Assembly (NCBI GenBank): GCA_029881035.1
Contig: JAOUNI010000002.1
Coordinates: forward strand, 64,565 to 128,564
Reading direction: 5' to 3'
Length of the DNA stretch: 64,000 bases
DNA from: Gammaproteobacteria bacterium
GTDB lineage: Bacteria; Pseudomonadota; Gammaproteobacteria; SZUA-229
Positions 19,571-62,900 of the stretch are shown here, in pieces; positions within the stretch are counted from its first letter, which is position 1, and each line of letters opens with the position of its first letter. The notes beneath the pieces are model-generated. The model worked only from the letters and a program-made list of their open reading frames with translations. It was not told the DNA's origin and did not search any database. The position numbers and the translations under genes are program-made.

Positions 19571-20434
19571 TTACCAATATGGATAACCATAGTATCCGTT
19601 GGGCGCATTATTTGGGGCATAATAAGGGTTATTATTATAACCATATGGATTTACGGGCTGTGGTTGACCATTATAATTCCAACCCGAATTTTGCGCAGCC
19701 ATATTAACCGGCGCCTGATTGGGCTGCTGATAGCTATTAACTGGATAATTCATGTAACCAGGCATCTCACGCGCGCCGTTATACGGCATGTTAGCTGAAC
19801 GTTTAGCCCACTCCTGCTGATACCTCGCCTGCTCTTGCTGCATCAGTGTCTGTTGATCCTTAACCCATTGTGGTGGCTCTGATGCATTTCGATTTGCCTG
19901 ATAATTACCCGCATTCTGCTTTTCAAGCTCGGAGCGACGCTTATCCATTTGCGCCTGCCTGTCTTTGATCCATTGTGGCGGCTCGGATGAAGCTCTATTC
20001 GAGAGATAGTTACCCGCATTTAGTTTTTCAAATTCTACGCGACGCTTATCCATCTCTGCACGTTGCTGAGTCACCCACTCAGGTTGCTGAACACGATTTC
20101 CGTTAGCCATCGATGGCACCTGAAAATAATTTAAATTGGCATCAGCAACAATAGCAGATGAGGAATTATTGTCTGATGAGAGCAAAGAGTTTAATTGCTG
20201 TGGCATAACTATGTAAGCCACTATAGTAGCAGTAGGTATGGCCACAATTAATGCCATTAAGGCAGATGAGATTATATGTGATTCTGTTTTAGGGGTAGCT
20301 TCACTTACCGTAGATTTCTTATCTGATGACATCATTCCCATCGCCTTTAATTTATTCGCTATCTTCTTTGTTTTTTTCTTATCAATACTGTCACCATCTT
20401 CACTATTGGCCGTACTATCATTTTTAATAACCAT
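19571..20434 (-). CDS. Membrane-anchored repeat protein with an Asn/Tyr/Pro/Gln-rich prion-like C-terminus (last gene of the low-complexity cluster)
   Basis: 287 aa. One TM helix; three ~35-aa repeats (E)PPQW[VI]KD[RQ]QAQMDKRR.E.EK.NAGNY; C-terminal ~60 aa almost only N/Y/P/G/Q, ending YPYW. Confidence 0.6.
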   Translation of the reverse strand: MVIKNDSTANSEDGDSIDKKKTKKIANKLKAMGMMSSDKKSTVSEATPKTESHIISSALMALIVAIPTATIVAYIVMPQQLNSLLSSDNNSSSAIVADANLNYFQVPSMANGNRVQQPEWVTQQRAEMDKRRVEFEKLNAGNYLSNRASSEPPQWIKDRQAQMDKRRSELEKQNAGNYQANRNASEPPQWVKDQQTLMQQEQARYQQEWAKRSANMPYNGAREMPGYMNYPVNSYQQPNQAPVNMAAQNSGWNYNGQPQPVNPYGYNNNPYYAPNNAPNGYYGYPYW

Positions 20435-20467: not shown

Positions 20468-21031
20468 TTACCAGGGTGTGTACGAATTCATAAATTGCAT
20501 AGGTCTTGATACGCTGTTGTTGATCACCGCTATTTCATGACTCATTTGACCCGCTGATACACTCATACTTCTTACATAGCCATTCATTTCCTGTATCGTC
20601 AATGTTTGCCTTTCCATATTGATAACAACAGCCTGCATAGTACCGTTAATTGAATTCATTTCAGTAGCTATAGCGCCTACATCCTTGGTCAGACTATTAA
20701 TAAGAAAGAATCCATATATCGCTAAGACAATGAAAGCAAACATAGCAGGAAAAACAATCATTTCCCATCGACGTGTACTAGCGGTAAATGTTTTAGTTAA
20801 CTCATTCAGACTTTCACTTAAGACGTGTTCAACACTATCTTTTATCGTGTCATCATAATAACCAAACATAGATAACTTCTTGTCACAACGATTCGGCTCA
20901 TTAGGACATGTATCTGGGTCACCAGTACAGCCCTCTATTCCTGGCTCGCACTCGATTGATTCTATAATTACGTCTCTTACGTTCTTTTTCTTATGAGGGT
21001 GCGCATTTTTGTCGGACATTGTATTTACCAC
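20468..21031 (-). CDS. Hypothetical single-TM protein with a Cys-rich N-terminal region
   Basis: 187 aa. ECEPGIEGCTGDPDTCPNEPNRCDKK then a central TM helix; C-terminus ends ...YTPW. Confidence 0.55.
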   Translation of the reverse strand: MVNTMSDKNAHPHKKKNVRDVIIESIECEPGIEGCTGDPDTCPNEPNRCDKKLSMFGYYDDTIKDSVEHVLSESLNELTKTFTASTRRWEMIVFPAMFAFIVLAIYGFFLINSLTKDVGAIATEMNSINGTMQAVVINMERQTLTIQEMNGYVRSMSVSAGQMSHEIAVINNSVSRPMQFMNSYTPW

Positions 21032-21051: not shown

Positions 21052-21903
21052 TTACCCGGAAATCTTATTTCTGAGTTTTTCCGCACTGACCACATCAAGA
21101 CCCTGAATAACCCTCAACAAGTAATTGACCTGTTGCCCCATCTGTTCATTCTTATCTCGCTCCAATAAACGAACTGCCGCCTCATAATAAGCCTCAGCCG
21201 CCTGTTTCCATTTACCCTGAGCGTAATAAACATTACCCAATTCGCCATAAATATCCGGGTCACTATCATCAATATTAAGAAGATCTAGATAGCCTCTCTC
21301 AGAATCGTGTATCTCGCCTTTCCAGAATAACTGCCTTGCCATAAACAAACCTTGTTTTGCGTCAATAGATACGCTATCAGTTGCAGAAACACTGGTATTT
21401 TCCCTACTACTAATAACTAAATTATCAGTTTTTTGTTCCACCGAAACCAATACCTTATCCTTTTCATCATTGTTCGATGCAGGCTCAATAGCAAAAGATG
21501 CCTTATCTGCATCAAACAGCATATCAACTTTTTTGTTTATTGAGCTCACAGTTTCAGCCAACACCTCCATAATGGCCGCTGCCCCCTCGGTTTTCTCATC
21601 TGTAGCGATATCTTTACCTGACTCCATAGCCACTGACACTGTTTCTACATTGTCATCCTTTACGGCAACATTATCCACGATCGATTCGCATTCCTTTTGA
21701 ACAGCTACTTCTCCTTGAATATTCGCAGCCAAATATGATGGAATTGAAATTTTGAATTTTTCTTCCGCGTAAGAAAGTGCCGTATTAATATGCTGATTGA
21801 CGTTTGCATGAAATACTATTGAACGGAAATAAATTAATGCTGAAAATGCTAGCAGCAATACAACAAGTTTTATTGGTTTTATTAAAAATCTTAAGACCTT
21901 CAT
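21052..21903 (-). CDS. TPR-like repeat membrane protein
   Basis: 283 aa. N-terminal TM anchor, acidic/Ser-rich middle, C-terminal TPR-like helices (YGELGNVYYAQGKWKQAAEAYYEAAVRLL). Confidence 0.65.
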   Translation of the reverse strand: MKVLRFLIKPIKLVVLLLAFSALIYFRSIVFHANVNQHINTALSYAEEKFKISIPSYLAANIQGEVAVQKECESIVDNVAVKDDNVETVSVAMESGKDIATDEKTEGAAAIMEVLAETVSSINKKVDMLFDADKASFAIEPASNNDEKDKVLVSVEQKTDNLVISSRENTSVSATDSVSIDAKQGLFMARQLFWKGEIHDSERGYLDLLNIDDSDPDIYGELGNVYYAQGKWKQAAEAYYEAAVRLLERDKNEQMGQQVNYLLRVIQGLDVVSAEKLRNKISG

Positions 21904-21919: not shown

Positions 21920-22561
21920 CTAATTTATTAGATCTGGATATAGCGCATGCGCCAATTGATCAAATTCTTCTGCACTTTTACTCTTCCCTGAAAGCTCAAA
22001 TATTGAAAGCCCTTCACTTAAGGTACGCCTAAAACTCGTTCTCTGACATAGCCTGTATGGAATTACCCTGAATTTTTCCAGCATTTTTAGTGCCTGTTCT
22101 GCCTCATCGGATTCCCTCACGGCATGATGCGTATCAGCCCTGTTTATAAATGCAACTAATTCTGGATGATTATTATCACCACATGCATCATTAATTATTT
22201 TCAAAAATCTCTGCGTCGCCCATACATCAGGCTGGCTCGGTTGCACTGGAACAATAACTCGGTGAGCAATGCTTATAGCTGCTTTCATCGCATCCATATT
22301 AGCCGCACCCACATCTACTAAAACATGACACGAATGATTATTTAATGTCCCACAAATATCATTACTATCTGCAACACTTACTAACAGCTCAGGCTCAATA
22401 TCATCTTCTCTCCTAACCAATGCAACATCATGCAATGTTTGTTGAGGGTCAAGATCATAGGCAACCACGACTTCACCTTTCATCTTCAGCCAGATAGCAA
22501 GATTGAATGCAACCGTACTTTTGCCTGATCCACCTTTAAGATTTGCGATGACTGTTATCAT
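21920..22561 (-). CDS. Orphan ParA/MinD-like P-loop ATPase. The track ORF extends to 22597; the likely start is MITVIANLKGG
   Basis: Deviant Walker A IANLKGGSGKST with the signature Lys; ParA-type Walker A' and Walker B; no parB or parS nearby. Confidence 0.8.
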   Translation of the reverse strand: MITVIANLKGGSGKSTVAFNLAIWLKMKGEVVVAYDLDPQQTLHDVALVRREDDIEPELLVSVADSNDICGTLNNHSCHVLVDVGAANMDAMKAAISIAHRVIVPVQPSQPDVWATQRFLKIINDACGDNNHPELVAFINRADTHHAVRESDEAEQALKMLEKFRVIPYRLCQRTSFRRTLSEGLSIFELSGKSKSAEEFDQLAHALYPDLIN

Positions 22562-22568: not shown

Positions 22569-23333
22569 TCACCTGTTAGTGTATTCAGGGCGAACATCTG
22601 GCTGAGATACTATTTTTGCGTAGTCTCCGGGGACACTGAATAAATCATCTGGCTGTTTGGAGACCACGATATTTTTTAGCTCTCTAATATAACCACCTGG
22701 CAACTCTTCTTTTATGGCGATTTTCAGGCCCGGGTCATACCATTGGTAAGATACTGCACTTTTTCCATCTGGACGACTCAACGTTCGCTGCCATTTTTCG
22801 GTATTTCGTCCATTTATTTTTTCCTTTTGTAACATCTTTAACTCTGCCACCGAACCATCTGGAAAAAATTCTCTTATCGCAAGTTTTCTTTTTATATCCA
22901 TCCAGTGAAGAGTCCGTAATTTTCTTCCTCTATTTTCAGAGATGATTTGCCATTTTTCTGTATCGTGTCCGTCGATGTTTTCATTACCCAATTTCTCACA
23001 TATTGCGTTTGATATTTGATCACATGGCGTATCATTATTTTTCTTATTATTTTGCCTATCAAACACTTTCTCCACATATGATTTCAATGGGTTGTTAATA
23101 AGGACTGCCCTACCCTCTTGCGGATAAACAATTTCGACAATCACTTGTTCGTTAACTACAGACTCATTTCTAACCGCTTTTTCACTCACAAATAATTTGG
23201 TCTGTCTCATGTTCTGTTGTGGCGCACTAATCACTGCATCTGCTGAAAACTCTACAATTTTTGGCTCAGCATATGTATTGCCGGTTATAAACACCGAACA
23301 AGCTATAACCAGGATTTTTCTCAGAGCACCCAT
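22569..23333 (-). CDS. Hypothetical secreted protein
   Basis: 254 aa; signal peptide MGALRKILVIACSVFITGNTYA; overlaps or abuts the ParA-like gene. Confidence 0.6.
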   Translation of the reverse strand: MGALRKILVIACSVFITGNTYAEPKIVEFSADAVISAPQQNMRQTKLFVSEKAVRNESVVNEQVIVEIVYPQEGRAVLINNPLKSYVEKVFDRQNNKKNNDTPCDQISNAICEKLGNENIDGHDTEKWQIISENRGRKLRTLHWMDIKRKLAIREFFPDGSVAELKMLQKEKINGRNTEKWQRTLSRPDGKSAVSYQWYDPGLKIAIKEELPGGYIRELKNIVVSKQPDDLFSVPGDYAKIVSQPDVRPEYTNR

Positions 23334-23412
23334 AACACGCTACCATTTATTTTGCATATTGCTAACTTCAACCGAGTTTGTCACATCCCTGTGAACACTC
23401 ATACTTCACTGA

Positions 23413-23865
23413 CTACTGAGCAGGTGCTGGTGCAGGTGCTGCTTGAGGAGCATAACCAGGACCATAATAACCAGGACCGGGGCCGTAACCATAACCAGGA
23501 CCAGGGCCATAACCGTAGCCATTGTTATAACCGTTATAGCCGTTATAGTTATTTCGACCGTAGTAGTCACCAGCACCATTACCATAACCACTACCACGAG
23601 CATTTGAGTTGCCACTCATGTTGAAGCCAAAATTGCCATCGCCAAGGAAATCGCCCATACCATTGCCATTACCCCAACCATTGCCATTATTACCCCAGTT
23701 GTTATTGTTGTTGCCCCAACCATTGTTATTATTATTCCAGGGACCCCACCAGGCATTTGCTGTCATAGGCGTAGCCAGAGCAGCTGCTACCGCTGCAACA
23801 CACAGTACTTTTTTCACGTTTTTCATAATATTTCTCCCCTTCTTCTGAAGGCTATTAAAAGACAC
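23413..23865 (-). CDS. Secreted extremely low-complexity Gly/Asn/Trp/Tyr-rich protein
   Basis: 150 aa. Signal peptide ..ATPMTANA, then WWGPWNNNNNGWGNNNNNWGNNGNGWGNGNG...NYNGYNGYNNGYGYGPGPGYGYGPGPGYYGPGYAPQAAPAPAPAQ. It has the same orientation as its neighbours, and the alternative-frame ORFs lack signal peptides. Confidence 0.6.
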   Translation of the reverse strand: MSFNSLQKKGRNIMKNVKKVLCVAAVAAALATPMTANAWWGPWNNNNNGWGNNNNNWGNNGNGWGNGNGMGDFLGDGNFGFNMSGNSNARGSGYGNGAGDYYGRNNYNGYNGYNNGYGYGPGPGYGYGPGPGYYGPGYAPQAAPAPAPAQ

Positions 23866-23958
23866 AATTTAAATATTAAACTGTTTGCTCTCTGGCCAAA
23901 TCTAACTGAATCATGTCGCAGAGAGCACCGCACGTGACCAGTTTTAAAAATGTTTGTA

Positions 23959-24582
23959 TTACCAGAACCTTGGCCTGGATAATAAACCTGTGTACGGATA
24001 AGAACCGCCAGGATAACCGCCATAACCTAGTCCGTTCGAAATTAAACCCGGATAGATTGATGGTGTAATTAATGGATTGTGATGCATCGTTCCTGGATAA
24101 CCATAAGCACCGCCTAAAGGTAGCAGTGATCTTCCGTAAGCAGTGAATGGATCAGCCGATACAAAATTATTACGATATGAGGAATCATTCTGATGACTCC
24201 ATTGTTTAAATCGCTGATCATGAAGCTTCATATTGTTTTTATTGCTCGGTTTCCGATCTGGAATATTTCCCCATGGCCGTTGACCAGAAAACGTTTTTTT
24301 AGAGTAAGTAGATTTAACTGCTTTCCATGGATTTTTGGTCGTTACCGGTGAATAACGAACTTTATTATCTTCATTAAAAGAGCGACCACTTCCCCATTGC
24401 TTTTCCCCGACACTATTCCGAAAATCAGGGTCAACAGAAGGTGGAGAAAAGTCTGAAAAACTTGATTTTGATACAAAATCTTCCTTCCACTCTGTTGCGC
24501 TCACTGGCTGAAGATAAAGACCACTATTAACAAGCAGCAATATAAGAATTTTATTCAAATAACTATTGTCAGCTATATTCAT
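23959..24582 (-). CDS. Secreted protein with a Gly/Tyr/Pro-rich C-terminal domain
   Basis: 207 aa. Signal peptide; C-terminus ...LPLGGAYGYPGTMHHNPLITPSIYPGLISNGLGYGGYPGGSYPYTGLLSRPRFW. Confidence 0.55.
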   Translation of the reverse strand: MNIADNSYLNKILILLLVNSGLYLQPVSATEWKEDFVSKSSFSDFSPPSVDPDFRNSVGEKQWGSGRSFNEDNKVRYSPVTTKNPWKAVKSTYSKKTFSGQRPWGNIPDRKPSNKNNMKLHDQRFKQWSHQNDSSYRNNFVSADPFTAYGRSLLPLGGAYGYPGTMHHNPLITPSIYPGLISNGLGYGGYPGGSYPYTGLLSRPRFW

Positions 24583-24657
24583 AACATCATCTCTGTATCT
24601 TATATTTCAATTCATTTAACAAAAAACTAACCTGCATCATATTTTTCAACAATGGAA

Positions 24658-25146
24658 CTAGTACCGTTGCCCCTGATACATTGGTTGCTGATAATATTCT
24701 GGCGGCACAGCACCAGGACCGTAAACCGGGCCACGTGCAGAAGGGAAAGGTTGCTGAAATCTATTATCTTGAACGCCGGGAGCACGACCTGAATAAGTAT
24801 TTGGCGCTGGTTGCATTTGATTATAATTCCATTGTGGCTGTTGATTTGGCCGATTCTGAGATTGCATATTTGATTGTTTCATTCGTTGCTCCATCTGAGC
24901 CTGGCGTTGTTTCACCCAATCTGGCACCTCACTGTTTAACTGGTTGGATTGTGCAGAGGGATGCCCATAATTTTTTCTCATATGCGAACAATTTTGAACG
25001 CTCTGATCTGAAGTATATTGATCAGTATCATCAACTGATTTATATGGGCCAGGAGGTGGCATCACATTCTCATAGCTTCCAGCAAAAACTGAATGATTTA
25101 TTGCCATTGTCATAGCAGTCATTAATACTAATATTGTTGTTTTCAT
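24658..25146 (-). CDS. Secreted Gln/Asn/Pro-rich low-complexity protein sharing the PxWVKQRQAQME motif with 19571-20434
   Basis: 162 aa. Signal peptide ..SVFAG; PDWVKQRQAQMEQRMKQSNMQSQNRPNQQPQWNYNQMQPAPN...; 24 bp downstream of the RND gene stop. Confidence 0.55.
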   Translation of the reverse strand: MKTTILVLMTAMTMAINHSVFAGSYENVMPPPGPYKSVDDTDQYTSDQSVQNCSHMRKNYGHPSAQSNQLNSEVPDWVKQRQAQMEQRMKQSNMQSQNRPNQQPQWNYNQMQPAPNTYSGRAPGVQDNRFQQPFPSARGPVYGPGAVPPEYYQQPMYQGQRY

Positions 25147-25170
25147 GCGGTTGCCTTATATAATTTTCTT

Positions 25171-28100
25171 TTATTCTGTTTCCAATCCAGGATTAAGACG
25201 GATTCCTCGTCTTTTCTTCTTCGTTGCAATCTTTTTTTCACTTACGATAACTGTATTTTTTTTATCTTCTGATGACTCACTGATGGATGCGATTTTTTTC
25301 CCAGGTGCTGACTTTTTTTTCACCGCAGTCGCAGCTTTCTCAGCTGCTACTTTCTTCTGTGCTGCAGTCTTCTTTTTCACCACCGGCCTCGATACTTTGG
25401 CGTCACCTACTTTTTCCTGAACCACCTCATTGTTGACAGCCTGATTCTGGTCACTAGTTTGAGTTTGTGAGGAACTTTGATTCACATCTCCATCATTGCC
25501 TGAAACTACCGATGAAGAAACTGGGGCGGGCGTGGGATTACCTCCTGATGAGCCTGAGCCGCCACCATCTGGTGAACTCGGACCGGAACCACCTGAGTCA
25601 CTACTGAATCGTGCAAGCAAACTCTGTATACCCATGCGAACCATCATGACAATCATGCGGCCAATATAGAAAGCCCATGTCACCGCATTAATTAACTGCA
25701 TCCAGATTCTTAACCATAAAGGTAACTGATAAGCCGGAGCTTCAGGCTCACTTACTTTAACTTTAATAGCGGGATTTTCCATGCCTGCCAGCAAATAGAA
25801 CTGCTTGCTGACACTTATACAACCCAACGGAATCACTACCAGAGTTAACACCGTGGCGACACCCGCACCATATAACAGACTGACGGCCATGCCCTTGAAA
25901 ATCAAATCATCAAGAATCATATAGGCACCTGCCATCAACGTTAGCGCCGTGATCAGGATAGGACGCATACGTGCTTTACCTGCCAGCACCACTGCCTCCT
26001 TAATATCCACGCCATTGGCCACCTCATGCTTGACGAACTCAACCAGCAAAATGGAATTTCGCACCACGATCCCTGCCAGCGCGATAAAACCAATCATAGA
26101 TGTGGCAGTAAATTCCGCATTCGCAAACCAGTGCCCAGGAATAATCCCAATGAGCGTCAACGGGATAGGTGCCATAATCAAACCACCGAGAGTAAAATTC
26201 TTGAACTCCCAGACGATCAGTCCATAAATCAGCAACATGGCCGCCATAAATGCGCCGCCCATATCCCTGAATGTTTCATAGGTCACGGTCCATTCACCGC
26301 CCCACTCAAAACCGCTTTCGAAACTATCATCCGGCGGTCCTAACAAACCCATTGGCATGCCAGTCATGGTGACACCGTCAGGTGTCACATAATTTTCGAG
26401 AATATCTTCCACATCAAACATGCCATAAATTGGCGCACCAAGACGTCCTTGCATTTCACCCGTAACGTATTCAACATCACGCAAATCTTTGTGATAAACA
26501 AGCTGGTCCTGTTCTTCTTTGATAAAACGACCTAGCTCAGAAAGCGGCACAGTTTCACCATTAACACCAGTAATTGGCAAATTACCCAGGCGGTTAATTT
26601 GTGAACGCACTCCCATAGGCGCCTGAATCACAATATAAGTTGGTTCCAGTACTACCCCTTTTTTCACATCACCTAGTTTGTAGCCACCCATAACCATAGC
26701 CAGGTTACGATTTATCGCGTCAACAGAAATACCGCGTCGTACTGCTTTTTCAGTATCCACCTCAAAACGCCAGTAATCGTGCGGCGTCGCCATATAATTA
26801 TCAACGTCAACAATACCTTCAGCTTCCCTGAAAATTTCAGTCATATCGCGAGCAACCTGACGACGCGTCTCTGCATCAGGTCCATATATTTCAGCAACCA
26901 CTGTCTGTAATACAGGCGGGCCTGGCGGCATTTCAATAACCTGAATATCAGCGCCTAAACTGTCAGCCATATCTTTTATCAACTCACGTGCATTAACCGC
27001 AATTTCATGACTCGCGCGTTCTCGATCTTCCTTATCAAGCAGCATGACCTGGATGTCAGCTTGCCAAGGCTCCTGCCTTAAATAGTAATGGCGCACCATA
27101 CCATTGAAATTAAACGGAGAGGCCGTGCCTACATAGGTTTGAATTGATGTCACTTCTGGTAATTCACGAAGTTTTGCCGCGAGCTGCGTAGTCACATTAG
27201 CCGTAACTGGCATTGCTGTTCCGTCAGGCATATTGATCACAATATTAAACTCAGGCTTGTTATCAAAAGGCAACATCTTTACAGTAACTGCCTGGGTGTA
27301 AAACAATGAACAAGCAATAAATGTTGCCGCAATTAATAAAAACAGAAACATCAAACCCAATGCCCTGTTATTACATAATGGATTCATGCAAGGGTCATAA
27401 AATTTACCAATCCATGCTGTAATTTTTTCCTCTCGCCTTTCTGCCTTTTCCAGTGCGCCTAACTGTGGACGAACCCGCATTGCAAACCAGGGCACAAAAA
27501 TAAATGCTGCAAATAATGAAAGCATCATAGCGGCCGAACCTAGCACCGGGATGGGTCTCATGTAAGGCCCCATCAAACCACTAACAAAACCCATTGCCAA
27601 TAAAGCAGCGACAATAGCCAATGTTGCCAGGATGGTTGGATTGCCAACCTCTCGCACCGCATCAATAGCAATATTGGTGGTTGTCTTTCCTGCCTTTAAC
27701 CATCGCCTGAAAATATTTTCGACTACCACGGTGGCATCATCGACCAGAATACCGATGGTAAAGACCATGGCAAATAAACTCACACGGTCAATGGTGTAAT
27801 CAAGAAACCACGCCGACCACACCGTCATTAAAATGACCAGTGGTATGATAAAAATGACCACCGATGCAGCACGAAGTCCCAGGCCAATTAAACATAAAAT
27901 ACTGACAGCGACCGTGGCTTCAAATAATGCTATCAGTAACTCATTAACCTTATCGTTGGCTGTTTTCCCGTAATTACGCGTAATGCTAACCTGAACATTA
28001 TCAGGGATAAGATGACCTTTTAAGGATTCAAGTTTTTCCAGCAACTGATTTGCAACTGACACACCATTAGAACCAATTTTCTTTGCCACTGCGATAGTGA

Positions 28101-29052
28101 CTGCTGGTGAATCTATAGTCTCGGGAGTTGAACCATCATGTGCCAGCCCAGTTGAAAAAGCCACCATCTTGCTAGTTTCTTCAGGCGCCTGATAAACCCA
28201 GGCAATATCACGCACATAAACCGGTGAACCTTTTCTGATCGCCACAACAAGATTAGAAACATCTTGTGCGCTTTTTAAGAATGCGCCTGTATAAACGTGA
28301 AAGCTGTCATTATCTCCTTCCACATTACCCGCAGATTGTTCAGCGTTCGCTGTTTTAATTGTGTTGGCAACATCTTCTATGCTAATCCCAAAACCACTCA
28401 AACGTTCTGGAGAAACCTCAACACGTATTTGTTCTGCTCGTCCACCAACAACAAAACCTTTACCTGAATTTGGAACTTCCTCAAGGCGCTGTAGCACATC
28501 CAGTCCCAGGGTACGTAGTACAGAATCATCGATCCCCTGATCTTCTGACCATAAAGTGATAGTCACTACTGGCACATCATCAGTACCTACAGGTTTAACC
28601 AGAGGCATTGAAACGCCTGGAGGAATCTTATCCAGATTCGACTGCAATTTATCATGCACTTTGACAATCGATTCGCCAAAGTCTTCGCCCACTCTGAAAC
28701 GCGCTGTCACCATACCCTGACCACGCGCGCTGGCAGAGTAAACGTGACGCATACCAGGTATTTCACTGATCATGCGTTCTAGCGGATTAACCGCAAGACT
28801 GGCCACCTGTTCTGCCGAAGCACCGGGATACTGAAAAAAGATATCCACCATGGGCACGGAAATCTGTGGATCTTCCTGACGCGGAGTAAACAGCAGCCCC
28901 AGTATGCCAATACCCAAAAAGGCCAGCATTAATAGAGGGGTAACCGGTGAATTTATAAACTGACGGGCAATACGCCCGGCGATACCAAGATTAGCTTCGT
29001 CTAGCTGCAGATCATCATCCTGCAGGTTCTTTTCGTCTATTTCATTTGACAT
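25171..29052 (-). CDS. RND (AcrB/HAE1-like) efflux permease with a ~230-aa C-terminal low-complexity Gly/Ser then Lys/Ala-rich histone-H1-like tail
   Basis: 1293 aa. 12-TM RND architecture with two large periplasmic loops (core ~1060 aa). The tail ...SGGSGPSSPDGGGSGSSGG...KKKTAAQKKVAAEKAATAVKKKSAPGKK...KKKRRG has no counterpart in canonical AcrB/MexB. Confidence 0.9.
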   Translation of the reverse strand: MSNEIDEKNLQDDDLQLDEANLGIAGRIARQFINSPVTPLLMLAFLGIGILGLLFTPRQEDPQISVPMVDIFFQYPGASAEQVASLAVNPLERMISEIPGMRHVYSASARGQGMVTARFRVGEDFGESIVKVHDKLQSNLDKIPPGVSMPLVKPVGTDDVPVVTITLWSEDQGIDDSVLRTLGLDVLQRLEEVPNSGKGFVVGGRAEQIRVEVSPERLSGFGISIEDVANTIKTANAEQSAGNVEGDNDSFHVYTGAFLKSAQDVSNLVVAIRKGSPVYVRDIAWVYQAPEETSKMVAFSTGLAHDGSTPETIDSPAVTIAVAKKIGSNGVSVANQLLEKLESLKGHLIPDNVQVSITRNYGKTANDKVNELLIALFEATVAVSILCLIGLGLRAASVVIFIIPLVILMTVWSAWFLDYTIDRVSLFAMVFTIGILVDDATVVVENIFRRWLKAGKTTTNIAIDAVREVGNPTILATLAIVAALLAMGFVSGLMGPYMRPIPVLGSAAMMLSLFAAFIFVPWFAMRVRPQLGALEKAERREEKITAWIGKFYDPCMNPLCNNRALGLMFLFLLIAATFIACSLFYTQAVTVKMLPFDNKPEFNIVINMPDGTAMPVTANVTTQLAAKLRELPEVTSIQTYVGTASPFNFNGMVRHYYLRQEPWQADIQVMLLDKEDRERASHEIAVNARELIKDMADSLGADIQVIEMPPGPPVLQTVVAEIYGPDAETRRQVARDMTEIFREAEGIVDVDNYMATPHDYWRFEVDTEKAVRRGISVDAINRNLAMVMGGYKLGDVKKGVVLEPTYIVIQAPMGVRSQINRLGNLPITGVNGETVPLSELGRFIKEEQDQLVYHKDLRDVEYVTGEMQGRLGAPIYGMFDVEDILENYVTPDGVTMTGMPMGLLGPPDDSFESGFEWGGEWTVTYETFRDMGGAFMAAMLLIYGLIVWEFKNFTLGGLIMAPIPLTLIGIIPGHWFANAEFTATSMIGFIALAGIVVRNSILLVEFVKHEVANGVDIKEAVVLAGKARMRPILITALTLMAGAYMILDDLIFKGMAVSLLYGAGVATVLTLVVIPLGCISVSKQFYLLAGMENPAIKVKVSEPEAPAYQLPLWLRIWMQLINAVTWAFYIGRMIVMMVRMGIQSLLARFSSDSGGSGPSSPDGGGSGSSGGNPTPAPVSSSVVSGNDGDVNQSSSQTQTSDQNQAVNNEVVQEKVGDAKVSRPVVKKKTAAQKKVAAEKAATAVKKKSAPGKKIASISESSEDKKNTVIVSEKKIATKKKRRGIRLNPGLETE

Positions 29053-29098: not shown

Positions 29099-30415
29099 TT
29101 ATTTAGAGAAATCAGGCGTCCAGCCTGATCGAATACCCGGCGATGGTGAAGCAAAAATTTGCTCCCCAGGGCTAATACCAGATAATACAGCGACATTTTC
29201 ATTATCAACTTCATCACCCAGTCGTACTAGTCGCATCTCGGCACGACCCTCGTGATTAAGTACGAATACAGCTGGTAAACTGCCACGCCGAACAATGGCG
29301 GAGGAAGGAATAATTGGCATATCGGCAATAGGTGTGTTCACATCAGGGATCATTACTTCAGCATACATACCTGGACCACCCGGCACGCCCTCAGGTAAAT
29401 CAAATTTCACAACCACAGTGTGTCTCTGTGAATCCGCGACAGGAAAAATTTGCGCTACGCGCACATCAATGTAAGTATCACCCACGTCCAATTTTGCAGG
29501 CACGACCATATCTTCACTCAGTGCCGACACCAGTCTGGCAGGCACATCAACCTTGAGCTGCAGAAAACGGATATCCGCAAATTGCAATAAAGCCTGGCCA
29601 GGCTGAACCGTGTCGCCGACTTCTGCAACTTTCTTCACAATAACGCCTTCAAATGGCGAAATAGCCCGTGTATCACGTAAGCGCGCATCTATTTCATCAA
29701 TACGCGAACGTGCACCGTGAATTCCACTTTGCGCCTGATCGACGTGCGTACCCTGAGAGTACAGATCCACATCACGGACCACCCATGGATTCAAGCCGTT
29801 ATATGATGGATAACCGCCTGAGGATGGGCCGCCACCAAAACCCATAAATTTTTCAAACATGGAAGGGAAGTACCCCATGCTTGGTGCAGTTTGCTGCTGT
29901 TGCTGCTGCAAAGCCTGTGGCGCCCAGAACTCCCTGGAATATTGAGCTCGTGCATCCTGTAATGTTGATGACCTGCCATAAAGGTCAGCCATTGCCTGTT
30001 GCCGCTGCGCAAGCACATCGTCATCATCAATAGCGACCAGAATCTGGCCTTCGTCAAACCATTCACCTTCACTACCTGCAATAAACTCAACCCGTCCTGG
30101 AGTCTGAGCAGTTAAGGTCACTTCTCTATAAGGCTTAACAGTACCGCCCAATACTACATGTGCACCTGTTTTTGCATTGGTGACAGTGATAATGGATCCA
30201 TGCTGCTTACCACCACGCTGTACAGTCGGGTAGAAAACTTTGCCTGACGTATGCGCCGACTGATTACTGTTATCTGTCCGATAATAGGCTTTTTCGGCCT
30301 GCAACTGAAAAGATATTATTAATGATACTGCGAGCAATAATCGGCTTAATAAATAAGCACTATCTGCCGGCCGCGTAGTAAACCACTGGTTGTTACGCAT
30401 TACTGCTTTCCCCAC
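29099..30415 (-). CDS. RND efflux membrane fusion (periplasmic adaptor) protein with a Gln6/Gly/Tyr/Ser/Pro-rich insertion
   Basis: 438 aa. N-terminal anchor; biotinyl/lipoyl-like and beta-barrel MFP domains; ~45-aa insertion QQQQQQTAPSMGYFPSMFEKFMGFGGGPSSGGYPSYNGLNPW. Confidence 0.85.
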   Translation of the reverse strand: MGKAVMRNNQWFTTRPADSAYLLSRLLLAVSLIISFQLQAEKAYYRTDNSNQSAHTSGKVFYPTVQRGGKQHGSIITVTNAKTGAHVVLGGTVKPYREVTLTAQTPGRVEFIAGSEGEWFDEGQILVAIDDDDVLAQRQQAMADLYGRSSTLQDARAQYSREFWAPQALQQQQQQTAPSMGYFPSMFEKFMGFGGGPSSGGYPSYNGLNPWVVRDVDLYSQGTHVDQAQSGIHGARSRIDEIDARLRDTRAISPFEGVIVKKVAEVGDTVQPGQALLQFADIRFLQLKVDVPARLVSALSEDMVVPAKLDVGDTYIDVRVAQIFPVADSQRHTVVVKFDLPEGVPGGPGMYAEVMIPDVNTPIADMPIIPSSAIVRRGSLPAVFVLNHEGRAEMRLVRLGDEVDNENVAVLSGISPGEQIFASPSPGIRSGWTPDFSK

Positions 30416-30449: not shown

Positions 30450-30836
30450 CTAGATTTTTGCCATGACAGCAAAACTTTTGATGAAGGGTCCGGCCATACG
30501 AGGATCTTTAATCATAGCGCCATAATCTCCAACTAAAAATTTCAGCTTACCTGTGGTATAGGCCATACCTAACCCCATCATCCCCGGTGGACTCTTCACC
30601 CATTTACCCCAATGCTCATTGGATGCACGTAAGTCCCAGTTCAACGTCTCACCGTTATACTCACCAGCTGAAACCACATGACCGTTTTCAACAGTAATAA
30701 CACCTACAGGCTTTTCTTCACCTGTGAAGCCATAAGCAATTACAGAGTTAAAATTTATCTGTTTAAGTGCATCTGCCAATCCAGGTTCAGCATTCCAGGC
30801 ATTCTGAAACTTCTTCATCCAGTCTTCTTTAAACAT
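30450..30836 (-). CDS. SCP2 (sterol carrier protein 2)-like lipid-binding domain protein; first gene of the RND operon
   Basis: 128 aa, WMKKFQNAWNAEPGLADALK...GKLKF...AMAKI; SCP-2 sterol-transfer fold signature; 34 bp upstream of the MFP gene. Confidence 0.7.
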   Translation of the reverse strand: MFKEDWMKKFQNAWNAEPGLADALKQINFNSVIAYGFTGEEKPVGVITVENGHVVSAGEYNGETLNWDLRASNEHWGKWVKSPPGMMGLGMAYTTGKLKFLVGDYGAMIKDPRMAGPFIKSFAVMAKI

Positions 30837-30879
30837 TTTTTATTTCTCCAAAATAATTTAACGACCCATATCTGACATA

Positions 30880-30895
30880 GCAAGAGTTATGCCAA
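30880..30895 (-). promoter_or_regulatory. Sigma-54 (-24/-12) promoter TGGCAT-N5-TTGC on the - strand, upstream of the SCP2-MFP-RND operon
   Basis: The reverse complement of GCAAGAGTTATGCCAA is TTGGCATAACTCTTGC, matching the TGGCAC-N5-TTGCW consensus with GG/GC correctly spaced. It sits about 45 bp upstream of the SCP2 start, with a divergent sigma-54 activator gene. Confidence 0.55.
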
Positions 30896-30923
30896 CTCCC
30901 AACTCATTGATTTACATCAAACA

Positions 30924-31055
30924 ATTGTTGCTCATTGTTCCATCATGCAACAATACTTTTATTGACTAATGTCACTAAGTGGATGAATACATGTAAAAAC
31001 CAAGGATATATTGGGTGAAACATTGTTGCGCAACACCGCAATAATTGCAACACTG
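30924..31055. promoter_or_regulatory. Putative upstream activator sequences: inverted repeat ATTGTTGC-N15-GCAACAAT (30924-30954), perfect palindrome TGTTGCGCAACA (31024-31035) and a TTGCAACA half-site (31045-31052)
   Basis: Repeated TTGTTGC/GCAACAA dyads 30-170 bp upstream of the sigma-54 promoter, inside the divergent intergenic region with the EBP gene. Confidence 0.4.
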
Positions 31056-31094
31056 TGATTAGATAATAATTTTTCCCCTACTAAGGAACGTCTA

Positions 31095-32444
31095 ATGCAG
31101 CCCAGTGAACCCAACTTTGCCCTGTTACTGGAAAACATTGTTTCATTCATCGATGAAGGTGTCATAGTAACTGATAATCTAGGTAACGTTCTATACCATA
31201 ACCCAGCAGTATTTAAATTACTCGGCATTGAACCCAACAAACCGATCAATAAACTACACGACATAGGTAAGTTTAATTTACAGAAAGCTATCTTACGTGC
31301 CGCTATCGACGCGGGTGAAACCGATGCTGCCGGTAAACCCAGTGACAACTTTATTAGCTTCGAACAACAATTTCATCATGATGGCTGCAATCGACTGGTC
31401 GAAATTATTAGTCGCCTGATTACCAGCCCTGATCACAAAGAGAAAAACCGCCTCATACTGTTCAGAGATCGAACAGACGCACGGCATATGGAAGCCGTGC
31501 TCAATCCCATGGGCAAACAGATGAGCAGCCAGGATCCACGCATGCTGGAAATTATTGATCGCATCTATCAAATTGCCCCAACTAATGCTTTTATCCTGCT
31601 ACAAGGGGAGTCTGGCACAGGTAAAACACAATTGGGACGATTGATCCATACTCAAAGCAGTCGATCAAAAGAGGCATTTGTGGAAGTGAACTGTGCAGCT
31701 ATACCAGAAACCCTGATTGAATCTGAATTATTCGGCCATGTTAAGGGGGCATTTACCGGTGCCAGTAGAGGTCGCCCAGGAAGGTTTCAGAGCGCACACA
31801 AAGGCACATTATTTCTTGATGAAGTTGGAGAGATCCCCCTGCATCTACAGGCAAAACTATTACGAGCCATTCAGGATCAGGAGTTCGAAATGGTGGGCTC
31901 AGATAAGCCCGTACGCGTTGACGTACGTATTATAGCCGCCTCCAACAAAAATCTAAGACAGATGGTAGATAAGGGCAAGTTCCGCGCCGACCTATTTTAT
32001 AGACTGGCCGTTATCCCCATAACCATACCTTCACTTAAAGAAAGACCAGGCGATATTATATTATTATCCAAACACTTCTGCGCCCAGTTAGTGGCCAGAG
32101 GTTACCCTGCCAACATTACTTGTAGCGACGAAGCCACTCGTATGATGATGGATTACCCCTGGCCCGGGAACGTACGTGAGCTTGAAAATGCGGTAGAACA
32201 TGGTCTAATTTGTGCCATCGATGGCCAGGTAAGAACTGAAAGCCTGCCTCAGGATATACGTGAACATAGCCTTAAGCTGAACAAGCCGATTCATGACGCT
32301 GAAGACAATGCAATTCAACATGCCTTCGAAATAGAATCTACATTAAAACAGGTTAATGGCAATAAAGCCGAAGCGGCAAAGGTACTGGGCGTAAACCGCA
32401 CCACACTATGGCGGTGGATACAAAAATACGGCATTGAAATATAA
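31095..32444 (+). CDS. Sigma-54-dependent Fis-family transcriptional activator with an N-terminal PAS-like sensor domain
   Basis: 449 aa. AAA+ sigma-54 interaction domain (GESGTGKT, GAFTGA, ESELFGH), C-terminal HTH (RTTLWRWIQKYGI). Confidence 0.9.
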   Translation: MQPSEPNFALLLENIVSFIDEGVIVTDNLGNVLYHNPAVFKLLGIEPNKPINKLHDIGKFNLQKAILRAAIDAGETDAAGKPSDNFISFEQQFHHDGCNRLVEIISRLITSPDHKEKNRLILFRDRTDARHMEAVLNPMGKQMSSQDPRMLEIIDRIYQIAPTNAFILLQGESGTGKTQLGRLIHTQSSRSKEAFVEVNCAAIPETLIESELFGHVKGAFTGASRGRPGRFQSAHKGTLFLDEVGEIPLHLQAKLLRAIQDQEFEMVGSDKPVRVDVRIIAASNKNLRQMVDKGKFRADLFYRLAVIPITIPSLKERPGDIILLSKHFCAQLVARGYPANITCSDEATRMMMDYPWPGNVRELENAVEHGLICAIDGQVRTESLPQDIREHSLKLNKPIHDAEDNAIQHAFEIESTLKQVNGNKAEAAKVLGVNRTTLWRWIQKYGIEI

Positions 32445-53124: not shown

Positions 53125-54615
53125 ATGAAACCTTCACTTCAACTCAATATTGGCCAACATCTAACGATGACGCCACAGTTGCAGCAGGCCATACGTCTGT
53201 TACAACTTTCCACTCTCGATTTGCAGGCCGAAATTCAGCAGACTCTCGAAGAGAACCCAATGCTGGAGCTGGAAGAAGACAACATTTACCCCAGTGATAA
53301 CAGTGACAGTGCTATTGGCACAGAAATACAACAGGTCTCCGCTGATAGCGAGAACACCACTGGTGACACAGATGATTCTCATCTGGATATGGAAAGAAAC
53401 CAGGATATCCCAGATGAATTAGCCGTTGATACTGACTGGGGTGATATATACGATATCGCTCCCAGCAACACCAGCAGCTCAACCGGTGACGGCGGCAATG
53501 ACTACCTTGAGAACCAGTCTTCCGGGGATGAAAACCTTCAAGACCATCTACTCTGGCAACTGCAAAATAGCCCCACCAGTGAAACCGATCTATTAATCGG
53601 TACCTCCATCATTGACGCCATTAATGAAGATGGTTATCTCACTGAATCCGTTGAAGACATCTATCAGAGTCTGGTCGATGAGCTCGACATTGAGCTTGAT
53701 GAAGTTGAAGCAATGCTGCATCGTATCCAGCGTTTTGACCCACTCGGTGTAGGCGCACGTGATCTACGTGAATGCCTGTTATTGCAGCTGGAACAATTTG
53801 CCCCCGACACCCCCGAACTGGCTGATGTCAAAATGCTGATCGAAAACTATCTTGATCTGATTGGTGCTCATGATTATGCCCGACTACAACGTAAAACTCG
53901 TCGTAGTGAAGAAGAACTACATGTACTGATCAGTTTCATCCAGACGCTCAACCCCAAACCGGGTTCTATCATCAGCAGCAGCACTACCCACTACATAGCT
54001 CCTGATATTTATGTACAGAAAATCAACGGTCGCTGGCGTGTTGAACTCAACCCGGAAACAGCCCCAAAAATCCGCGTCAACCAGATTTATGCCGATCACC
54101 TGAAAGCTGCTGGCCGTGGTGACAACAATTCACAGCTCAAAAATAGCCTGCAGGAAGCGCGCTGGTTTATCAAAAGCCTGCAAAGCCGAAATGAAACGCT
54201 CATGCGTGTTGGTAAAGCCATCGTTGAACGCCAACGTCTGTTTCTGGAATATGGCGAGGAAGGCATGAAACCAATGATATTACGTGACATCGCCGAAGAA
54301 CTGGAGATGCACGAATCAACAATATCGCGTGTGACCACACAAAAATACATGCACACTCCTCGAGGAGTGTTCGAATTTAAGTTCTTTTTCTCAAGTCGGG
54401 TTACCACATCGGATGGAGGCGAATGTTCCGCAACAGCTATCCGCTCCATGATGAAAAAACTTATTGAGAATGAGAATCCACAAAAGCCCCTGAGCGACAA
54501 CAAGATTTCTGCCTTTCTAATCAAAGAAGGTATTAATGTTGCACGTCGAACTGTGGCAAAATACCGGGAATCGATGATGATTCCTCCTTCAAATGAGAGA
54601 AAGCGTCTTGCTTAA
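53125..54615 (+). CDS. rpoN: RNA polymerase sigma-54 factor
   Basis: MKPSLQLNIGQHLTMTPQLQQAIRLLQLSTLDL; C-terminal RpoN box ARRTVAKYRE. Confidence 0.95.
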   Translation: MKPSLQLNIGQHLTMTPQLQQAIRLLQLSTLDLQAEIQQTLEENPMLELEEDNIYPSDNSDSAIGTEIQQVSADSENTTGDTDDSHLDMERNQDIPDELAVDTDWGDIYDIAPSNTSSSTGDGGNDYLENQSSGDENLQDHLLWQLQNSPTSETDLLIGTSIIDAINEDGYLTESVEDIYQSLVDELDIELDEVEAMLHRIQRFDPLGVGARDLRECLLLQLEQFAPDTPELADVKMLIENYLDLIGAHDYARLQRKTRRSEEELHVLISFIQTLNPKPGSIISSSTTHYIAPDIYVQKINGRWRVELNPETAPKIRVNQIYADHLKAAGRGDNNSQLKNSLQEARWFIKSLQSRNETLMRVGKAIVERQRLFLEYGEEGMKPMILRDIAEELEMHESTISRVTTQKYMHTPRGVFEFKFFFSSRVTTSDGGECSATAIRSMMKKLIENENPQKPLSDNKISAFLIKEGINVARRTVAKYRESMMIPPSNERKRLA

Positions 54616-59975: not shown

Positions 59976-62900
59976 ATGCTACCCAAAATGCGCTATCGCT
60001 TAGGTCTCGATATTGGGACAACATCAATCGGCTGGTGCCTGATCAGGCTAAACAAATCGGAAGAACCCATCGCCATTATCCGCATGGGCACAAGAATTTT
60101 CTCAGATAGCCGCAATCCCAAAGACGGCAGCTCACTTGCGGTCACACGTAGAGAAGCCAGACAGGCAAGGCGGCGACGTGATCGCCTACTCAAGCGTAAA
60201 CAAAGAATGCTGAATGCGCTAATTAATCACCAGTTCTTCCCGCAGGAAGAAAATAAAAGGCAGGCACTGGTCAATCTAGACCCCTATGCCCTACGTAAAA
60301 AGGGCCTGTATCAGACACTTACTGGAGAAGAATTTGCACGCGCACTATTCCACATCAACCAGCGACGGGGTTTCCTGAGTAACCGCAAAACCGACAAAAA
60401 TGACAATGAAAGTGGTGCACTTAAATCTGCCATCAAAACACTAAGAGAAAAGCTTATCCAGGAAGACTGCAAGACACTGGGAGAATGGCTGGCAAACCGA
60501 CATGAAAAAGGGGAAAGTGTTCGTGCTCGACTACATGGCAAAACCCAAAAAGACCGGGCTTATGATTTCTATGCTGATCGCGCCATGGTTGAACATGAAT
60601 TTAATGAGCTCTGGTCTAAACAATCCAGCTTTAATCCTTCGCTGTTCAATGAAAAAGCGAAAGAGGAACTCAAAGACATACTGTTATTTCAACGACCACT
60701 CAAACCTGTCAAACCGGGGCGCTGCACCCTGTTGCCTGAAGAAGAACGCGCCCCCCTGGCTTTACCAAGCACTCAGCGATTCCGTATTTACCAGGAGGTG
60801 AACAACCTGCGCATCATCACAGGCGAACTAAAAGAGCAACCTTTGACACTGGAGCAACGTGATGCCGTTGTTGAGCTTCTCGAACAAGGTGATGCCACAT
60901 TCAAAACAAAAATCAAAAAGGCACTTAATTTATCTGGCACAGTAGAATTCAATCTTGAGGATATTAAGCGAGACAGGCTAAAAGGAAACAGAACCTCTAT
61001 CATCCTTTCCAGGAAAGAATTATTTAGCAAGCAGTGGCATACCTTTACCCATGATCAGCAGGACGAAATTGTAGACCATTTATTACACGAAGAAAGCCTG
61101 GGAAAACTGGTCGATTGGTTGTGCAAGAAAACAAACATCGATGAAAGCACAGCCGAACTTATTGCTAACACCAATCTGCCAGAAGGCTATGGCAGTCTCA
61201 GCAAAAAAGCACTGAATCACATACTACCTGAATTAGAAAAAGACGTTATTCCCTACTCTACTGCAGTTGAAAAAGCAGGCTTTGAAAGCCATAGCGCACT
61301 TTCTCATGCACACCAGACAGGGGAAATTATGGAACAACTCCCCTACTACGGTATCCCTTTGCGACGACATGTCGCCTTTGAAAAAGACGAACCAAAAAAT
61401 GATGAAGAACGCTATGGAAAAATTGCCAACCCTACGGTTCATATCGGGCTAAATGAAATACGAAAAGTCGTCAATGCGATCATCAAACGCTATGGGCACC
61501 CAAGCGAAATAATTGTTGAGGTCACCCGCGAATTAAAATTAAATCGTGAAAGAAAAAATGAAATTCAGCGGGAACAAAAACTAAACCAGGATCGCAATGA
61601 AGAAAATATCAAGGAAGCCTGTATAGCACTAGGACTAAACCCTAACAATCTGGACAAATCCAAACGACGCGAGCTCTCGCAAAAAATGCAGCTATGGAAA
61701 GAACTCAATCCGAAAGATGCTGCAAACCGTCGATGCCCATACTCAGGCGAGCAAATCAGCATTAACAAACTACTTTCCAGTGAAATTGAAATTGAGCACA
61801 TTTTGCCTTACTCAATAACGCTCGATGATAGTTTAAACAACAAAACAGTATCAACGCGTCGTGCCAATCGGGACAAGGGTAACAAAACACCTTATGACGC
61901 ATTTGGCAAACAGGCATTAGAGGGTTACGACTACAATCTCATTCTCGAGCGTGCGGCACTCATGCCTAAAGCAAAATCTAAACGATTTACCACCGATGGA
62001 TACCAGCAATGGCTCCGTAACGATAAAGATTTTCTTGCCAGGGCGCTCAATGACACCGCTTATCTTTCACGAATCGCAAAAGAGTATTTATCGTGTGTTT
62101 GCCCACCAAATATGGTGCGTGCAATCCCCGGAAGAATGACTGCACTCTTGCGCGGAAAATATGGCCTTAATGACCTTCTATCTAACGATGACCATAAAAA
62201 CAGGGACGACCACAGACATCATGCTGTTGATGCTGCTGTAGTCGCCATCACCGACCAGGGACTGTTACAAAGGTTTTCCAAAGCCAGTGCTTACGCCAGA
62301 CAACATCAACTCAATAAGCTTGTCGACGAGATGCCATACCCATGGCCGACATTTCGGGCAGATGTTCAGCGCGGTTTAAATAATATTTATGTCAGCCACA
62401 AACCTGATCATGGCTATCAGGGCGCCATGCACGAGGCATCCGCCTGGGGCATAAACAAAGAAGGGATGGCCACTCGAAGCGTGAAACCCGAGGACGGAAG
62501 CATAAAGCAGCGCGAAACCAAAAATCAAAAGCTGGTCATGATCAATAGTTCAAACAATAAGACACGCCATGATCTCAATGAAGATGGCGAAACAAAGGCC
62601 TACAAGGGCTATGTCGGCGGCAGTAACTACTGCCTTGAAATCTTGCGTGACGAAAAAGGCAAATGGAATGGCGATGTTGTCTCCACCTTCCAGGCCTACC
62701 AGATCATTCGTGAAATGGGTGAAGACAATGGGTTCAGGCAACTAAGAAACCCATTAACCAGCCAAGCCGGCAATCCCCTTGTTATGCGACTCATGATTAA
62801 CGATTACGTCAGGTTAAATGTTGGTGATACCACTAGAACTATGCGCGTAGCCAAAATAAGTGGCAATGGTCAGATCTTTCTGAGCGAACACAATGAAGCC

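Follow-up and report, generated by a model that had tools for sequence, protein, structure and literature searches.

In a 64,000-nucleotide stretch of a gammaproteobacterial genome (contig JAOUNI010000002.1 of assembly GCA_029881035.1, positions 64,565 to 128,564 of the forward strand; the whole stretch is hereafter the window), we examined a gene for a resistance-nodulation-division (RND) permease, whose product carries a long, basic, low-complexity tail behind its last transmembrane (TM) segment. The tail ends in a near-invariant peptide, KRRGI(R/K/Q)L, and in every distinct related locus that could be scored, this motif and a gene for a ParA-like ATPase, located further down the same operon, are either both present or both absent. 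The interpretation that we favour, with slightly better than even confidence, is that the tail would serve as a disordered tether presenting a ParA-binding "luggage tag" to the operon's ParA-like ATPase, by which the pump would be positioned.

The permease is encoded by a single unbroken frame of 1293 codons, as established by translation of the open reading frame (ORF):

25171..29052 (minus strand, including the stop codon and the tail): RND permease gene, 1293 residues; identified by ORF, by Pfam ACR_tran and by its nearest solved structures, TriC 6vej and MexK.

Pfam ACR_tran (PF00873) covers residues 29-1076 (E 1e-141, 474 bits against a cutoff of 28) and the alignment with AcrB spans residues 32-1085. 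The protein matches the full architecture of 12 TM segments and two periplasmic loops, aligning end to end with the structures of AcrB, MexB and TriC, and its nearest solved structures are TriC 6vej (E 5e-62) and MexK. None of the named NCBIfam RND subfamilies (multidrug, CusA/CzcA, MdtB/C and others) reached its cutoff: the matches are full-length and far below the cutoffs, the top one being RND_permease_2 with 392.7 bits against 1250. By these scores the permease belongs to a distinct, unnamed subfamily that is ACR_tran/HAE-like. Some 190-215 residues lie past the canonical RND C-terminus. A first-pass annotation of this DNA had described the protein as an RND permease whose C-terminus is extended by a long, basic, low-complexity tail, and the Pfam and AcrB alignments bear this out; the interval that it gave for the tail, 25171-25872, does hold the extension, but it also takes in part of the last TM segment (TM12).

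Between TM12 and the stop codon the following modules can be distinguished:

25819..25893 (minus strand): TM12, about residues 1054-1078, ending in the invariant VIPLGC (residues 1073-1078); from hydropathy, with a Hessa insertion free energy (dG) of about 0 kcal/mol.
25720..25818 (minus strand): variable linker after TM12, residues 1079-1111 (33 residues); from comparison of homologue tails and low predicted local distance difference test (pLDDT) values.
25603..25719 (minus strand): conserved juxtamembrane hydrophobic/amphipathic helix, residues 1112-1150, LWLRIW...W.FYIGRM...; helical in the AlphaFold2 model, pLDDT 87-92.
25498..25602 (minus strand): Gly/Ser/Pro-rich spacer, residues 1151-1185; from composition, pLDDT below 50.
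25384..25497 (minus strand): polar S/Q/N/D/E stretch, residues 1186-1223, hypervariable across homologues.
25216..25383 (minus strand): Lys-rich stretch, residues 1224-1279, net charge about +9.
25174..25215 (minus strand): terminal peptide KRRGIRLNPGLETE, residues 1280-1293, with the near-invariant core RRGIRL at residues 1281-1286 (nucleotides 25195-25212).

The end of TM12 is marked by four invariant alignment columns (P1075, L1076, G1077 and C1078). Of the 39 residues at 1147-1185, 28 are G, S or P, and residues 1231-1279 hold 14 K+R as against 5 D+E. AlphaFold2 pLDDT lies at 33-48 over residues 1153-1293, and everything after residue 1153 is thus predicted to be disordered. The quoted strings by which the tail had first been described (SDSGGSGPSSPDGGGSGSSGG, an S/Q/N stretch, KKKTAAQKKVAAEKAATAVKKKSAPGKK and KKKRRG) are all present in the translation. 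The G/S run does not, however, follow straight after the last TM segment, as had been stated, since the 33-residue linker and the conserved 39-residue helix (residues 1112-1150) intervene. Likewise, the label "histone H1/AlgP-like" holds for composition only: there is no Pfam match of the H1, HC2 or AlgP type and no repeat periodicity. Tandem Repeats Finder detected no DNA tandem repeats under the tail (25100-25950, score at least 30), no periodic peptide repeats of the KPAA/AKKA type are visible in its sequence, a Pfam scan of the tail alone, run at E up to 10, turned up nothing meaningful (noise, and GAGA_bind at 0.044), and its last 28 residues matched no sequence in the PDB at E up to 10. 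The first-pass annotation overlooked the juxtamembrane helix, KRRGIRL (residues 1280-1286) as a motif, and the link to the ParA-like gene.

It is this terminal motif that sets the end of the tail apart from the rest of it. In an alignment of 91 sequences, three residues never vary (G1283, I1284 and L1286) and three more reach at least 90% conservation (K1280, R1281 and R1282), while almost no other position of the tail is conserved. Among the 120 closest homologues, RGI[RKQS]L was found in 113, always inside the last 8-31 residues; in the window, a search of all six frames over the 64 kb gave a single occurrence. The motif places hydrophobic I and L on either side of a central R/K, and variants include RRGIRI (locus L041) and RRGIRLMPG (locus L055). 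The Lys-rich stretch, for its part, is kept across homologues in composition and not in sequence, with a median of 38 K+R per 193 residues of tail. A hypervariable tail with a near-invariant peptide at its end is characteristic of short linear motifs borne on a tether.

The tail is the property of a large family. The 120 closest of 7993 homologues (1160-1447 residues long, 64-100% identical) all have it in frame, and their tails share one module order while being hypervariable in sequence. A scan of one genome per GTDB species returned about 478 related loci, of which the best 80 were inspected; these 80 all come from metagenome-assembled genomes of Gammaproteobacteria, and bear labels such as Thioalkalispiraceae, Ectothiorhodospiraceae, Woeseiaceae, Granulosicoccaceae, Thiotrichaceae, Competibacteraceae, Thiogranum, Sulfuriflexus and similar. 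The tailed RND family is one of mostly sulfur-oxidiser-type, environmental Gammaproteobacteria. The search for orthologues with similar tails that had been called for found the tail in 120 of 120 nearest homologues. The companion remark, that no RND transporter is known to carry such a tail, stands for the literature searched, which yielded no description of the operon or of a ParA-linked RND pump; it fails for the sequence databases, which hold hundreds of unremarked examples.

These comparisons also bear on the concern that a frameshift, an assembly error or a gene fusion had joined the pump to an unrelated low-complexity ORF. Low-complexity DNA is error-prone, and the coding sequence of the tail is indeed interrupted in two related contigs, by a frameshift in one and a premature stop in the other: in L004 (14047-14190) the frame shifts after a run of ESRAK repeats, and in L014 (3883-3990) an in-frame stop lies 23 codons before RRGIRL, the motif being still encoded just downstream in both. 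These two breaks are probably sequencing errors in low-complexity DNA, and they illustrate how such tails become mis-annotated. Against an artefact stand the 120 of 120 best homologues, from many independent assemblies, which keep the tail in frame, the dozens of independent contigs that do the same, the related loci in 478 GTDB species genomes, and the fact that the frame survives countless indels up to the conserved terminal motif. A frame maintained through so indel-riddled a region, right up to a conserved motif, argues strongly for translation of the tail as annotated; on the comparative data the artefact explanation is refuted, and we give it next to no weight. The same DNA also contains an overlapping frame on the other strand, which had been flagged as a possible source of confusion in annotation:

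25145..25420 (plus strand): antisense ORF, 91 residues, opposite the Lys-rich stretch; Phe/Leu-rich, starting in the 24-nucleotide intergenic gap.

This ORF does exist and could mislead gene callers; its richness in F and L is the reverse-complement image of AAA/AAG codons, and it is most likely a by-product of Lys-codon-rich DNA and not a gene.

The evidence that carries our reading lies in the company that the motif keeps. Five genes downstream of the permease gene, in the same sigma54-controlled operon, is the gene for the ParA-like ATPase:

21920..22561 (minus strand): ParA-like ATPase, with the probable start ATG at 22561 (the mechanical ORF extends to 22597); Pfam CbiA/AAA_31/MipZ.

Using the proteins of the window's operon as phmmer queries against all ORFs of the fetched loci, we scored the distinct GTDB loci that reach the ParA position (L051, which is N-masked, was left unscored). 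Both the motif and a ParA-like gene were found in 34 GTDB loci, in addition to the window; this figure includes L004, with the motif in a shifted frame after the ESRAK repeat, and L014, with the motif after an in-frame stop. Neither was found in 8 distinct loci, and among the distinct GTDB loci inspected, there was not one with the motif and no ParA, nor one with ParA and no motif. The association was reproduced from the opposite direction: a metagenome scan seeded with ParA returned at least 80 loci, and in all 25 of those that extend at least 5 kb upstream, there is an RND gene whose product ends in the motif. Wherever neighbouring DNA was present in these metagenome loci, ParA lies between a DUF4412 gene and a TPR gene, as in the window.

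The 8 loci that lack both elements are informative as to what exactly is lost. Six belong to one Thiogranum-type clade, in which the RND protein stops 25-45 residues after TM12, with neither helix nor tail. In the remaining two, L003 and L005, helix, spacer and basic stretch are retained and the C-terminal ends are unrelated, without motif and without ParA; in both, DUF4412 directly adjoins TPR. As L003 and L005 keep the tail but lose the motif along with ParA, it is the motif, and not the whole tail, that tracks ParA. No ParA remnant was detectable by tblastn in the ParA-less loci. In a neighbour-joining tree of RND cores, the ParA-less loci fall on two to three separate branches: the nearest relatives of L005 (78-80% identity) all bear the motif, and the nearest relative of L003 is the motif-bearing L036.

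Other genes of the operon were considered as partners of the motif and rejected. TPR and DUF948 are kept in essentially all related loci, the ParA-less ones included, so that both persist where the motif is lost, and DUF4412 likewise persists. The SCP2 gene fails as a covarying feature: it is absent from the tail-less clade, present in the ParA-less L003 and L005, and undetected in some ParA-positive loci. A seeming tail-less paralogue, L058, was discarded because its ORF is cut by the end of the contig.

The ATPase itself has the hallmarks of its family, as a deviant Walker A (KGGSGKST), a Walker A' (DLDPQ) and a Walker B (DVGA) are invariant in an alignment of 36 orthologues. NCBIfam NF041546 (ParA_partition) gives a full-length match, with positions 2-202 of 203 aligned (E 3.3e-39), at 134.5 bits, below the cutoff of 180; by this score the protein is a relative of ParA_partition and not an equivalog. 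Its PDB relatives are ParF/TP228 ParA, McdA and Soj, the closest being the partition-type ParA/ParF. The same operon could also be read in the light of BcsQ, the ParA-like protein then being an assembly or regulatory ATPase of the export complex, which the tail peptide would recruit as an on/off control of the pump or its partners. This reading draws on the very same co-occurrence data, on the placement of the ATPase gene, which lies within an envelope-export operon and has no centromere-binding protein encoded next to it, and on a resemblance to BcsQ that is weak and confined to an N-terminal stretch (TIGR03371, E 1.8e-12). The best full-length similarity, however, is to partition ParA/ParF (NF041546, 2-202 of 203), and a disordered spacer of 140 residues is more than a local contact would need, although the latter point is suggestive only. 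We regard a BcsQ-like role as unlikely, though it shares its comparative evidence with the positioning model.

A docking peptide for a ParA-like ATPase would have to lie in the cytoplasm. RND C-termini are cytoplasmic, as is established for AcrB-type pumps, but the additional helix after TM12 raises the alternative of a 13th TM segment, which would place the tail in the periplasm, there to bind envelope components (peptidoglycan, the outer membrane or the secreted low-complexity proteins) in the manner of the Lys/Ala-rich domain II of TolA. For the helix, the best 19-residue window has a dG of +3.2 kcal/mol on the Hessa scale (TM12: 0.0), and the hydrophobic moment is 0.4-0.48. Over 119 homologues the best-window dG has a median of +3.0; it is at or below 0 in 9 of them, which, together with the periplasmic location of several operon partners, would suit a 13th TM segment, and above +5 in 36, whose helices are amphipathic, with numerous Lys/Glu, and which carry the same terminal motif nonetheless. 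About a third of the homologues hence have a helix whose polarity rules out a membrane span, and yet share the motif; the compartment of the tail should therefore be the same in all, which points to the cytoplasm. Moreover, a tail with 30-70 basic residues is a poor substrate for translocation, and the ATPase that covaries with the motif is of the cytoplasmic type, without a signal peptide. On these sequence-based grounds the tail is likely cytoplasmic, in agreement with how it was first annotated, and a periplasmic tail strikes us as very improbable.

Taken together, the motif grammar (a basic run, G, I, R/K/Q, L), the disorder and the genomic linkage match the partner peptides of ParA-type ATPases, and lead to the proposal of a tether and tag. 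In the proposed mechanism, the tail would be a cytoplasmic, disordered, polycationic tether anchored at the membrane by the juxtamembrane helix, with KRRGI(R/K/Q)L as the docking and ATPase-activating peptide for the ParA-like ATPase of the same operon. By analogy with the ParB, McdB, PomX and TlpT systems, the ParA-like protein would, as an ATP-bound dimer, associate with a matrix, for which the nucleoid is the likeliest candidate; the three tails of an RND trimer would bind this dimer multivalently and trigger hydrolysis. We infer that the pump would thereby be distributed, or held at defined positions, and that both daughter cells would inherit it. The same positioning would extend to whatever the pump builds in the envelope, a task in which the adaptor, the SCP2-type lipid carrier and the sulfur-globule-protein-like secreted proteins would take part. 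The Lys-rich stretch could contribute reach and an affinity for DNA or acidic lipids, and its retention in the ParA-less L003 and L005 suggests a role that is in part independent of ParA.

That retention also speaks for another reading, the one suggested by the first-pass annotation, in which the tail would be an autonomous polycation resembling histone H1, AlgP or PhaM, binding DNA or polyphosphate and so tethering the pump to the nucleoid or to polyphosphate with no role for ParA. Its Lys-rich composition is conserved (the median of 38 K+R per 193-residue tail given above), precomputed matches to PF07382 (HC2) exist in a few homologues, L003 and L005 have a basic tail with neither motif nor ParA, and there is a precedent in PhaM, which attaches polyhydroxybutyrate (PHB) granules to the nucleoid (PMC3556143). 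On the other hand, the window's tail has no significant Pfam match and no repeats, and a polycation leaves unexplained both the invariance of the terminal hexapeptide alone and the loss of that peptide exactly where ParA is lost. Polycation binding is compatible with the tether-and-tag model as a sub-function and is insufficient by itself; as the whole explanation, we hold it to be quite improbable.

Several observations weigh against the tether-and-tag model itself. The co-occurrence counts are not phylogenetically independent and amount to two to three joint-loss events only, and they derive from the best 80 of about 478 GTDB loci. The motif of one large subclade reads RRGIQL, with Gln in place of a basic central residue. 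In 9 of the 119 homologues the helix is hydrophobic enough for a TM segment, and the tail would then end up in the periplasm. To our knowledge, the known ParA/MinD partner peptides are N-terminal, and the RND motif is C-terminal. Lastly, no cultivated carrier of the operon was identified; Thioalkalivibrio nitratireducens was considered and rejected as one, as its SCP2-like gene TVNIR_2884 stands alone, adjoining a DUF302 gene, without an RND operon.

ParA/MinD ATPases organise chromosomes, plasmids, carboxysomes, chemoreceptor arrays, flagella and the divisome, and many of them are "orphans" whose partners are unknown; RND pumps, for their part, are treated as freely diffusing machines of the inner membrane. 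On our reading, one orphan ParA family would gain both a candidate cargo and a peptide at which it may dock. The RND subfamily concerned is widespread and has gone unannotated; it occurs in hundreds of sulfur-cycle Gammaproteobacteria from the environment and seems to bring a ParA tag of its own. A more tentative extension, which we consider possible yet doubtful, is that the ParA ATPase might use the nucleoid to space or segregate a trans-envelope RND complex via the C-terminal tag, thereby dictating where an extracytoplasmic structure is built, perhaps sulfur-globule-like deposits coated by the operon's secreted low-complexity proteins. If this holds, no efflux-type transporter and no periplasm-facing cargo would have been shown before to be organised by a ParA system, nor would any ParA partner peptide have been placed at a C-terminus. 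Our reading, if right, would add a new class of cargo for ParA, show that partner peptides can work from a C-terminus, and link spatial information in the cytoplasm to an envelope or periplasmic process.

The remaining features of the operon and of its control region are as follows:

31095..32444 (plus strand): divergent sigma54-dependent activator (bacterial enhancer-binding protein); NCBIfam matches to sigma54 regulators, 1e-98 to 1e-103.
30880..30894 (minus strand): sigma54-type -24/-12 element TGGCATAACTCTTGC, with 1 mismatch to TGGCAC-N5-TTGC, about 45 nucleotides upstream of the first operon ATG.
30450..30836 (minus strand): SCP2-fold protein, 128 residues, cytoplasmic, first gene of the operon; AlphaFold2 pLDDT 95.6 and Foldseek.
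29099..30415 (minus strand): periplasmic adaptor (membrane fusion protein, MFP) of the pump; TIGR01730 RND_mfp, 150.3 bits against a cutoff of 94.9; HlyD_D23.
22569..25146 (minus strand): four genes for signal-peptide proteins, from their translations, their order kept in related loci; they are the next two entries.
24658-25146, 23959-24582 and 23413-23865 (minus strand): three N/G/Y/P/Q-rich low-complexity proteins with signal peptides.
22569-23333 (minus strand): DUF4412 protein (DUF4412, E 2e-9) with a signal peptide.
21052-21903 (minus strand): TM-anchored TPR protein, distal part of the operon.
20468-21031 (minus strand): DUF948 membrane protein, distal part of the operon.
19571-20434 (minus strand): low-complexity membrane protein, 287 residues, distal part of the operon.

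The order conserved among related loci is the divergent sigma54 activator, the -24/-12 element, SCP2, MFP, RND, one to three N/G/Y/P/Q-rich proteins, DUF4412, the ParA-like ATPase, TPR and DUF948. The divergent position of the activator is kept in related loci, and the -24/-12 element sits in the intergenic region common to it and the operon. That region (30837-31094) also holds several TGTTGC/GCAACA half-sites arranged as inverted repeats (31024-31035; 31020-31029 with 31047-31056; 30916-30931 with 30947-30962), which are candidate upstream activator sites for the divergent activator; rpoN lies at 53125-54615 of the window. The MFP gene adjoins the permease gene, as expected of a pump and its adaptor. 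The SCP2-fold protein has no Pfam or NCBIfam match; Foldseek aligns its model with SCP2 2cx7 and UbiJ-SCP2 (TM-score 0.78-0.80), its NCBI name is "SCP-2 sterol transfer family protein", and it has 2484 database homologues.

The low-complexity proteins (19571-20434, 23413-23865, 23959-24582 and 24658-25146, all on the minus strand) have a signal peptide or a TM anchor and an extreme content of N, G, Y, P, Q and W. Three of the four share repeats of the form P(Q/D)WV..(R/Q).QM(D/E)..R, and three of the four end in an aromatic residue (..PRFW, ..GYPYW, ..GQRY); the 150-residue protein shows a sub-threshold match to the sulfur globule protein family PF17228 (E 9e-4). The genes distal to DUF948 are variable, comprising a low-complexity protein, a dynamin-like protein and DUF302. 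A dynamin-like GTPase (Dynamin_N) and DUF302 follow DUF948 in L003 (19172-20719), L004 (21899-23347) and L005 (19329-20867), which hints at a membrane-remodelling component; the window's operon has no dynamin-like gene and the 287-residue low-complexity membrane protein takes that place.

Among the ten flanking operon proteins, none matched an OEP family, i.e., the cluster contains no outer-membrane factor of the TolC/OprM type. The annotation "multidrug efflux" is therefore unsupported, and, with an SCP2-type lipid carrier and sulfur-globule-protein-like proteins in the operon, this label is probably wrong; a hydrophobic cargo and a role in building the envelope are more plausible. Elsewhere in the window, at 59976-63041 (plus strand), there is a gene for a compact, 1021-residue Cas9-like protein (HNH_4, E 1.8e-23; RuvC_III, 5.8e-20; Cas9 alpha-helical lobe, 3.7e-11), directly followed by a 310-residue ORF (63045-63977, plus strand) that may be Cas1.

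Each element of the proposal has counterparts among known systems. The histone-H1-like tails of PhaM and PhaF attach polyhydroxyalkanoate (PHA) granules to the nucleoid (PMC3556143) and, like the tail of the RND permease, are Lys-rich, of low complexity and borne by a cargo other than DNA. Their cargo, however, is cytoplasmic, they bind DNA directly with no need of an ATPase, and they have no terminal motif but recognisable AAKP/PAKKA-type repeats, whereas no repeats were found in the RND tail. BcsQ, like the ParA-like ATPase described here, is a ParA/MinD family member encoded in an envelope-export operon, and acts on an inner-membrane machine; it works with BcsR/BcsE and the PilZ domain of BcsA, and BcsA lacks a disordered tail with a terminal motif.

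Among RND proteins, the closest parallel is found in the mycobacterial lipid exporters MmpL3 and MmpL11, which share with the tailed permease a long, disordered, dispensable-looking cytoplasmic C-terminal domain. In MmpL3 this domain serves localisation and protein-protein contacts, and such domains are rare in canonical RND proteins (PMC10171966). The MmpL proteins form a different RND family, the tailed permease being ACR_tran/HAE-like with an MFP. Moreover, MmpL3 reaches poles or septa through Wag31-linked factors under phospho-regulation, and it lacks a ParA-type partner, a Lys-rich composition and a terminal RRGIxL.

ParA/MinD ATPases are joined to their cargos by partner proteins, via positively charged, disordered termini (PMC10241942), and for ParB, whose peptide binds at the ParA dimer interface, the avidity of juxtaposed copies matters (PMC12462528). 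The peptides of ParB, ParG, McdB, PomX, MinE and TlpT resemble the RND motif in that a short conserved motif ends a disordered, positively charged region, in the hydrophobic residues around a central basic residue, and in being encoded beside a ParA-type ATPase. They differ from it in being N-terminal and in residing on adaptors that bind DNA or organelles; the RND motif, known here from sequence alone, is C-terminal and on an integral-membrane transporter, and its RRGI(R/K/Q)L differs from the LG(R/K)GL motif of ParB. In valency, the three tails proposed per RND trimer would compare with two peptides per ParB clamp (PMC12462528, PMC10241942). An RND pump and a ParA partner peptide are each of a known kind, and it is the proposed pairing of the two that would be new.

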